From assembly GCA_951406725.2 (NCBI GenBank), contig OX597827.1, positions 45,756,001 through 45,820,000 of the forward strand: 64,000 nucleotides of DNA, read 5' to 3'. The DNA comes from Octopus vulgaris (Eukaryota). Of the stretch, positions 51,352 through 52,345 are shown in pieces. The position numbers were made by a program, and so were the translations under genes. The notes under the pieces are model-generated. The model made no database searches, had not been told where the DNA came from, and worked only from the letters and a program-made list of their open reading frames with translations. Positions within the stretch are counted from its first letter, which is position 1. Each line of letters begins with the position of its first letter.

Positions 51352-52345
51352 TATAATTAATTAATAAGGGTGAGAGAATTAGATACTAATTTAATAGTAT
51401 ATTTATTCCACACCAAGTGGCCTAGTGCTACGAGAAACCTGGATTATTATAATATTTTATAACATATTATAATATTTTCACAAAATAAATATAAGAGAGT
51501 GTTCACTATATTGATCACTCTAGCACCAGTTAATCCAAGAGGTTTCAACCACGAAAAATACATGTTTCCCATGAAAGCCGGTACGACTGTTAGCTCACAC
51601 GGACAGGGCAAATAAACATGTTTCCCATGAAAGCCGGTACGACTGTTAGCTCACACGGACAGGGCAAATATTTTTTATTTGCCCTGTCCGTGTGAGCTAA
51701 CAGTCGTACCGGCTTTCATGGGAAACATGTATTTTTCGTGGTTGAAACCTCTTGGATTAACTGGTGCTAGAGTGATCAATATAGTGAACACTCTCTTATA
51801 TTTATTTTGTGAAAATATTATAATATGTTATAAAATATTATAATAATCCAGGTTTCTCGTAGCACTAGGCCACTTGGTGTGGAATAAATATACTATTAAA
51901 TTAGTATCTAATTCTCTCACCCTTATTAATTAATTATAATTATGCTGCATTTATTTCTAAATGCTGTATTTGTTTTCCGTGAGAGTTTGGCGCGCTGTTG
52001 GTTGGGGCATTTGAATTATATCGTCCGATGTAATCAATTGAACCGCACGCGTATTTATCGTTATGGTAAAATCTGGCGTGTGATTGAGTGGATTTCATCC
52101 AGATAGTCTTGGCTGAAGAGCTACAAATGGATTACTGTAAGTAATATTACATTTAATTCATTAATAGCGAAACAATTGTCCCAAAATAATCTGTAATTTT
52201 GTTATTTTTTATTTGCCCTGTCCGTGTGAGCTAACAGTCGTACCGGCTTTCATGGGAAACATGTATTTTTCGTGGTTGAAACCTCTTGGATTAACTGGTG
52301 CTAGAGTGATCAATATAGTGAACACTCTCTTATATTTATATTATT
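51352..52345 (+). mobile_element. Penelope-pLTR/retrozyme-like element: inverted copy plus 1.25 x 534-bp unit
   Basis: 51352-51670 is inverted at 51676-51938; gccctgtccgtgtgagc repeats at 51681 and 52215; TA tracts on both sides. Confidence 0.85.
52101..52192 (+). ncRNA. Type I hammerhead ribozyme
   Basis: Stem I ttgg/ccaa (extended agat../..atct), CTGAAGA 52113, stem II gcta..tagc, GAAA 52169, palindromic ACAATTGT, GUC site at 52178-52180. Confidence 0.82.

Follow-up and report, generated by a model that had tools for sequence, protein, structure and literature searches.

The insertion at 51352-52339 of the 64-kb stretch of Octopus vulgaris DNA analysed here (the window) is real, recent and well preserved. 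It is built from a 534-bp unit carrying one hammerhead ribozyme, and it probably represents a non-autonomous, non-coding, hammerhead-bearing element of 534 nt that was inserted in trans by the RT/GIY-YIG enzyme of a Penelope-like element (PLE); the class to which we assign the element is likely to be right. Elements of this kind are already known, and the locus adds no new chemistry or architecture class; its insertion scar is unusually clear on how the copying went. Three things raise it above the routine, all as seen in two copies: the PLE signature is clear and is borne by a retrozyme-like unit, the tail is long, and a stutter at the junction may reflect the structure of the RNA.

Anatomy of the insertion and of a second copy

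From left to right, the insertion consists of a (TA)n target tract (51326-51351), an inverted copy, a stutter, a forward run, and a degenerate TA tract passing into (TA)n (52340-52394). The forward run (51669-52339, plus strand) is 671 bp long, equal to 1.257 units of 534 bp, and it begins and ends with the same pLTR-like sequence: by exact matching, 51669-51805 and 52203-52339 are identical at 137 of 137 bases and are spaced by 534. The preliminary description, in which about 130 bp from 51676 recurred 534 bp later, had the spacing right and slightly underestimated the length. The truncation of the 5' direct repeat lies 22 nt beyond the point at which the hammerhead would be cut, and the 3' direct repeat lacks the tail and ends at what we call site A. 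The tail (51806-51938, plus strand) is the 130-133 bp between site A and a second end point, site B; it is present at one end only in both copies described below. Within the unit lie the predicted 3' arm of a 44-bp long-range RNA stem (51966-52014, plus strand, partner 52209-52266) and a type I hammerhead (52100-52193, plus strand), identified by descriptor and fold, with predicted cleavage after C52180 of the GUC triplet.

The inverted, 5'-truncated copy (51352-51616, minus strand) carries the tail, has its 3' end at site B (unit position 51938), and was found by exact matching and alignment to be identical at 265 of 265 bases to the reverse complement of 51674-51938. The 55-bp stutter that follows it (51616-51670, minus strand) is the exact reverse complement of 51676-51730, being a re-copy of the sequence that recurs at 52210-52264, with a period of 56. 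It shares with the forward run the dinucleotide TA (51669-51670), a 2-nt overlap that forms the head-to-head junction. Both the upstream inverted copy of about 265 bp and the 55-bp stutter had been noted earlier and are exact, and the alternative then offered, a partial tandem pLTR with an inverted 5' pLTR, agrees with the identical 137-bp repeats and the head-to-head inverted copy. If transcribed, the 265-bp perfect inverted repeat (51352-51938) would yield a long double-stranded RNA hairpin, which could be a source of silencing small RNAs against the 534-bp family.

Self-BLAST revealed a second copy in the window, at 61148-61419, that had been overlooked in the preliminary description and is 95% identical to the first. 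Its inverted arm (61148-61219, minus strand) has no tail, forms a 71-bp arm of a perfect palindrome and has its 3' end at site A (unit position 51808), and its forward arm (61218-61419, plus strand) carries the tail, ends at site B (unit position 51938) and is identical to 51737-51938 at 193 of 202 bases. The junction is a perfect palindrome with zero loop and a 2-nt CG overlap, and (TA)n bounds the copy at either side. A broken mariner-type transposase (61650-62407; PF01359, E 2e-22) lies directly to its right.

In unit coordinates, the four 3' ends are thus 51805 (first locus, forward), 51938 (first locus, inverted), 51808 (second locus, inverted) and 51938 (second locus, forward), so that every insertion has one end A and one end B, with the arms swapped between the loci. 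A one-sided tail of 130-133 bp and two fixed ends are therefore found in two of two copies, and sites A and B are 159 and 292 nt downstream of the hammerhead cut. The simulated chance of such common 3' ends is 0.0003 if ends are placed uniformly, and 0.008-0.03 if they are restricted to TA-like words. Within each insertion the two arms agree at every base, whereas 9 of 202 bases distinguish one locus from the other; each arm pair therefore came from one source in one event. This comparison covers the two copies within the window, the second of which is truncated before the body and is blind to the upstream sequence of its source. The circularly permuted start points proposed earlier are not supported by these two copies, which share both 3' ends. 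Fixed ends do not exclude a circular template, since internal priming at a fixed site works on a circle too; for the same reason, permutation of start points is not a test that discriminates a circle.

The 5' ends of the arms also nearly coincide, within 7 nt at the first locus and 0 nt at the second, with a uniform chance of about 0.0003. The second copy stops at 52271, 5 nt short of entering the 44-bp stem, a post hoc observation on a single stop. The flanks of the two insertions are AT-rich or (TA)n in all four cases, in a window where (TA)n is very common, and because the flanks are (TA)n a target-site duplication is not legible.

The ribozyme, the folded unit and its coding content

All core nucleotides of a type I hammerhead are present at 52100-52193: CUGAAGA (52113-52119), GAAA (52169-72) and GUC (52178-80), with a G-C pair closing helix II. 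Helix II (GCUA/UAGC, 52120-23 with 52165-68) is extended by a long hairpin into a 49-nt domain, helix III has 2 bp with a palindromic CAAUUG, and helix I consists of UUGG/CCAA and six more pairs, out to 52101/52192. The active fold (-16.6 kcal/mol) is close to the free optimum (-17.9 kcal/mol), and the fold z-score of 52095-52198 is -2.6, with none of 200 shuffles equally stable. The descriptor matched none of 5000 dinucleotide shuffles of the unit and found six cores in the 64-kb window. Rfam gave no match at the gathering score in the whole window, and at an E-value threshold it gave 25 weak matches in 51300-52400, none of them to a hammerhead family; the call accordingly rests on the descriptor and the geometry. 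On these grounds the intact hammerhead placed at 52101-52192 in the preliminary description is upheld. MicroRNA-like Rfam matches at 51617-51729, all below the gathering score, were rejected as they reflect only the perfect junction hairpin.

Weak palindromic helix III motifs have been described as needing a second copy for efficient cleavage (PMC4209133). With one hammerhead and such a helix III, the first locus cannot release unit-length RNA by double cleavage, and it is probably dead-end offspring. Furthermore, in the predicted fold of the whole unit the 3' part of the ribozyme is sequestered, 52163-79 being paired with 52186-206.

The unit has a GC content of 33%. Folded as a circle, it reaches -148.6 kcal/mol with 69% of its bases paired and a z-score of -5.4, none of 60 shuffles being as stable; the z-score depends on the number of shuffles (-8.0 with 20), and we quote the value from 60. 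Ten of ten control windows gave z-scores from -0.56 to +2.68. Folding cannot tell a circle from a linear RNA, since the circular and linear monomers give the same helices. The longest predicted stem has 44 bp; it is formed by 52209-52266 with 51966-52014, and it links the repeat with the body on the far side of the unit. The stutter, in its equivalent position 52210-52264, coincides with the 5' arm of this stem to within 2 nt at each end; among 69,954 segments placed at random, 126 came within 2 nt of a stem arm in this way, and the match is post hoc, on one stutter. The duplex of this stem is worth -53.9 kcal/mol as sense RNA versus -13.6 as antisense DNA. No compensatory base change was seen among 52 predicted pairs, a comparison of two sequences with only nine substitutions that is uninformative.

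The unit is non-coding. Neither peptide of its two longest frames (51673-51840 and 51930-52103) matched a Pfam family, and the protein search with frame 51930-52103 gave no longer homologue, which is weak evidence. Frame 51673-51840 had 10 multi-stretch matches to long proteins, covering about 30 residues with 30-39% identity; these are probably matches to repeat motifs. In the longest frame, six of six substitutions between the copies change the residue, and the ATG in helix II closes after five codons. An intron spotted by eye (donor-like GTAAGT at 52136 after the helix II ATG, with a U-rich tract and AG near 52237) was dropped, the downstream frame showing six of six replacements. Read by eye, the 54 frames of at least 120 aa in the window include no RT-like frame and no RT/GIY-YIG ORF, nor a linked coding PLE, which was one part of an outcome named earlier as refuting. 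The retrozyme-like reading fits a non-coding, strongly self-paired unit with low GC and a type I hammerhead. A scan of prokaryotic genomes with a 24-nt motif gave no match, as expected, and a scan of the sequence for bacterial promoters gave 5 versus 3.1 +/- 2.0, which is at chance level, bacterial models being irrelevant to a eukaryote.

The window is microsatellite-rich and holds several other elements. At 10038-12198, between TA tracts, lies an array of 4.4 units of 491 bp with four type I hammerheads on the minus strand and a fold z-score of -3.3; its units are 0-3 bases apart, the first and the fourth having the same sequence. This array conforms to the two-ribozyme rule of retrozymes and is a better circle candidate than the 534-bp element. 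Aligned with it, the 534-bp unit scored 28 versus a maximum of 33 among 100 shuffles, in keeping with the independent family proposed earlier, and the unit gave no alignment above shuffles with two other hammerhead-like elements of the window. A lone 259-bp element (50738-50996), again between (TA)n tracts, has a type I hammerhead on the minus strand (core 50878, predicted cut after 50805) and an ATG near the start of helix II, as in the 534-bp element, and has no second copy in the window. A short unrelated family (9590-9787 and 56907-57043), with a hammerhead-like imperfect core at 9729-9761, forms a head-to-head palindrome in TA-rich DNA. At 9590-9787 only the inverted arm bears a tail, of about 70 bp, and the forward arm does without it; the copy at 56907-57043 also bears the tail and agrees with the first at its 5' end. 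The anatomy is that of the 534-bp family.

Further palindromic elements at 32996-33346, 51039-51142 and 52493-52576, all three adjoining TA tracts, and at 49710-49752 are either MITE-like or head-to-head truncated insertions; that at 52493-52576 is the only one of them with a partial second copy (35128-35173). A frameshifted C-terminal fragment of a helicase at 50040-50247 matches PF02689 (E 0.007) and PF13538 (E 0.025), both below the cut-off, and presumably resembles the helicase end of a Helitron or PIF1. An exact 19-bp direct repeat (50033-50051 and 50654-50672) is spaced by 621 bp, its second member adjoining a (TA)n tract. Moreover, a reading frame from an abundant short repeat of the window has three protein matches at 69-80% identity, two of which are named Octopus bimaculoides, which by itself makes an octopus host very probable.

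Possible routes of insertion

We suggest that RNA of a source array from elsewhere, either multimeric or ligated into a circle, would be bound by a PLE protein, which would cut both strands within a (TA)n tract, the target seen in the sequence. Each DNA end would then prime reverse transcription at fixed site A or B; the ends are seen at both loci, and the priming is modelled on the anole PLE (PMC11167929). [quoted passage not shown] The cDNA from A would be the 671 nt of the forward run, copied through an uncut or religated hammerhead, and that from B the 265 nt of the inverted copy, both lengths being read from the sequence. The stutter may have formed at the end of the 44-bp RNA stem, where re-zipping would displace the cDNA and lead to one arm being copied again, a post hoc account; finally, the two cDNA ends would be joined head-to-head via the 2-nt overlap seen at the junction. 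A candidate driver, by analogy, is a hammerhead-bearing, TA-targeting clade such as Neptune (PMC8557442), and recently active Penelope families have been reported in O. vulgaris (PMC13282606). As to the template, a circle has somewhat less than an even chance against a multimer.

The main rival keeps the element and the enzyme and has a single cDNA fold back and prime its own extension into the inverted arm, which ends where an endonuclease cuts, at A or B. In the available account of PLEs (PMC8557442), the formation of inverted and tailed structures is called unresolved and the tail is ascribed to endonuclease resolution, and junction palindromes have been interpreted as self-priming (PMC3846280). 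The near-coincidence of arm 5' ends, seen in all three head-to-head insertions examined (7 nt and 0 nt at the two loci, 0-1 nt in the family of 9590-9787), favours fold-back and counts against two-ended priming, as independent priming alone does not explain it; the first junction, too, can be read as a 2-bp TA stem with a 5-nt loop. On the other hand, the zero-loop palindrome of the second copy, with its CG overlap, is one that a hairpin cannot form from the sequence of the first locus. In addition, the stem matched by the stutter is far more stable as sense RNA than as antisense DNA, and both strands are reported to be extended on RNA in vitro from the two tail-bounding sites (PMC11167929). 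We lean slightly towards two-ended priming, and regard the fold-back account as a whole as unlikely.

It is a little less probable still that the copies are debris of an autonomous PLE, i.e. a pLTR with a one-off internal deletion, rather than members of a non-autonomous family that has a 534-nt RNA of its own. In favour, 5' truncation is the usual state of PLE copies (PMC8969392), the second copy has only pLTR-like and tail sequence, and the recently active Penelope families reported for O. vulgaris number 30 (PMC13282606). Nevertheless, in the accounts available the tail of PLEs sits in the start of the ORF (PMC3846280, PMC11167929), whereas here the ATG in helix II soon meets a stop. Against debris also stand the replacement changes in the longest frame and the protein searches, which yielded no candidate apart from the 10 matches read as repeat motifs; and the longest stem, linking repeat and body, suggests that the unit evolved as one structured RNA.

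The model of the preliminary description, in which reverse transcription starts from an arbitrary point and runs slightly more than one turn around a 534-nt circular RNA, appears improbable. It would account for the more-than-unit copy, the intact ribozyme junction, the identical terminal repeats and the strongly self-paired unit, and circles have been proposed for both retrozymes (PMC7229834) and PLEs (PMC4209133). However, the 3' ends fall at two fixed sites, and the inverted arm calls for more than a circle. The same product would come from a linear multimer whose ribozyme stayed uncut, and uncut RNA is reported as the dominant substrate in vitro (PMC11167929). An assembly or library artefact (a fold-back chimera), which the 100% identity of the arms amid microsatellites might suggest, is very improbable given that the flanks are not mirrored, that the second locus has nine variants of its own with the same ends, and that another family is built alike.

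Starting from the preferred reading of a passenger mobilised by a PLE enzyme, one may go further and imagine a retrozyme family of cephalopods in which the 534-nt RNA is a circle and serves directly as template for a dimeric PLE enzyme. Copying would begin, for each DNA strand, at one of two fixed internal sites some 130 nt from each other, and the stutter of one stem arm would be a record of the RNA fold. We hold this fuller picture to be doubtful. If it is true, the mobilisation of animal retrozymes by PLEs would have, in addition to co-occurrence and trees, direct evidence of mechanism in the insertion anatomy, and the head-to-head structure of PLEs would come from two cDNAs made on RNA.

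Comparison with retrozymes and Penelope-like elements

Metazoan non-LTR retrozymes were described by Cervera and de la Pena in 2020 with units of 170-400 nt (PMC7229834), and a 2026 preprint by Li, Clavereau and Pollet (10.64898/2026.07.22.740005) extends the range to 51-972 bp; the octopus unit of 534 nt is above the former and within the latter. As in those retrozymes, the unit is non-coding and low in GC, and has a type I hammerhead with a 2-bp palindromic helix III and a high degree of self-pairing, which is reported for retrozyme circles as well (PMC7229834). The locus thus has four retrozyme features, namely ribozyme type, lack of coding content, size with GC, and self-pairing. Unlike active retrozymes, as described, it has 1.26 units and a single ribozyme, and so departs from the rule of two ribozymes in tandem; unlike in most animal retrozymes in the available account (PMC7229834), the fold predicted for the whole unit leaves the ribozyme blocked. 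Monomeric offspring are described in the 2026 preprint, and in its terms the locus would be such offspring and not an active retrozyme. Inverted copies and tails, both present in the octopus element, are not among the features described in the available accounts of retrozymes (PMC7229834; 10.64898/2026.07.22.740005). A literature search, with subscription papers and repeat libraries outside its scope, found no cephalopod retrozyme and no retrozymes with inverted tailed insertions; the 534-bp family may already be in a repeat library.

According to the available text of a 2020 review, the repeats of retrozymes show no motif that names their driver (PMC7761336), and the 2026 preprint, which argues from co-occurrence and from trees of pLTRs, concludes that the retrozymes of animals are PLE sequences of the non-autonomous kind (10.64898/2026.07.22.740005). 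A retrozyme-like unit with a clear PLE insertion signature bears on which retrotransposon moves animal retrozymes. As a young, short family with fixed starts, a long tail and a structure-linked stutter, it would be a convenient natural dataset and in vitro substrate for telling apart two-ended priming and fold-back, and likewise circle and multimer.

PLE insertions are reported to include partial tandems, an adjacent inverted 5'-truncated copy, a tail of 30-40 bp at one end and, in some clades, a (TA)n bias (PMC8557442, PMC3846280). The octopus element shares with the EN+ PLEs as described (Penelope/Poseidon and Neptune; Pen2a_Av, PAc) the two direct pLTR-like repeats with an adjacent inverted 5'-truncated copy (PMC3846280, PMC11167929, PMC8557442), the tail at one end only, the palindromic head-to-head junction and the AT-rich or (TA)n target. 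Its hammerhead, too, is upstream of two 3' ends, and its parts follow the order of the anole PLE (PMC11167929). It differs from them in having no RT/GIY-YIG ORF and a body of only about 400 bp, in its tail of 130-133 bp versus the 30-40 bp published, and in a ribozyme with a canonical-type helix III and a 49-nt helix II domain in place of the minimal motif. The non-autonomous Chlamys PLEs (MRC1 and others, PMC8557442; Chlamys-N4, PMC9977147) are likewise described as non-coding, pLTR-forming, heavily 5'-truncated and microsatellite-targeted, with head-to-tail copies. Unlike the octopus element, they belong to a green-algal clade with an N-terminal EN, are mostly without hammerheads in these accounts, and target (C)n or (CA)n. 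The octopus element, with its pLTR partial tandem, its inverted head-to-head copy in two of two insertions and its (TA)n target, has these insertion features in common with PLEs and lacks the ORF of an autonomous one; it works like a non-autonomous PLE passenger.
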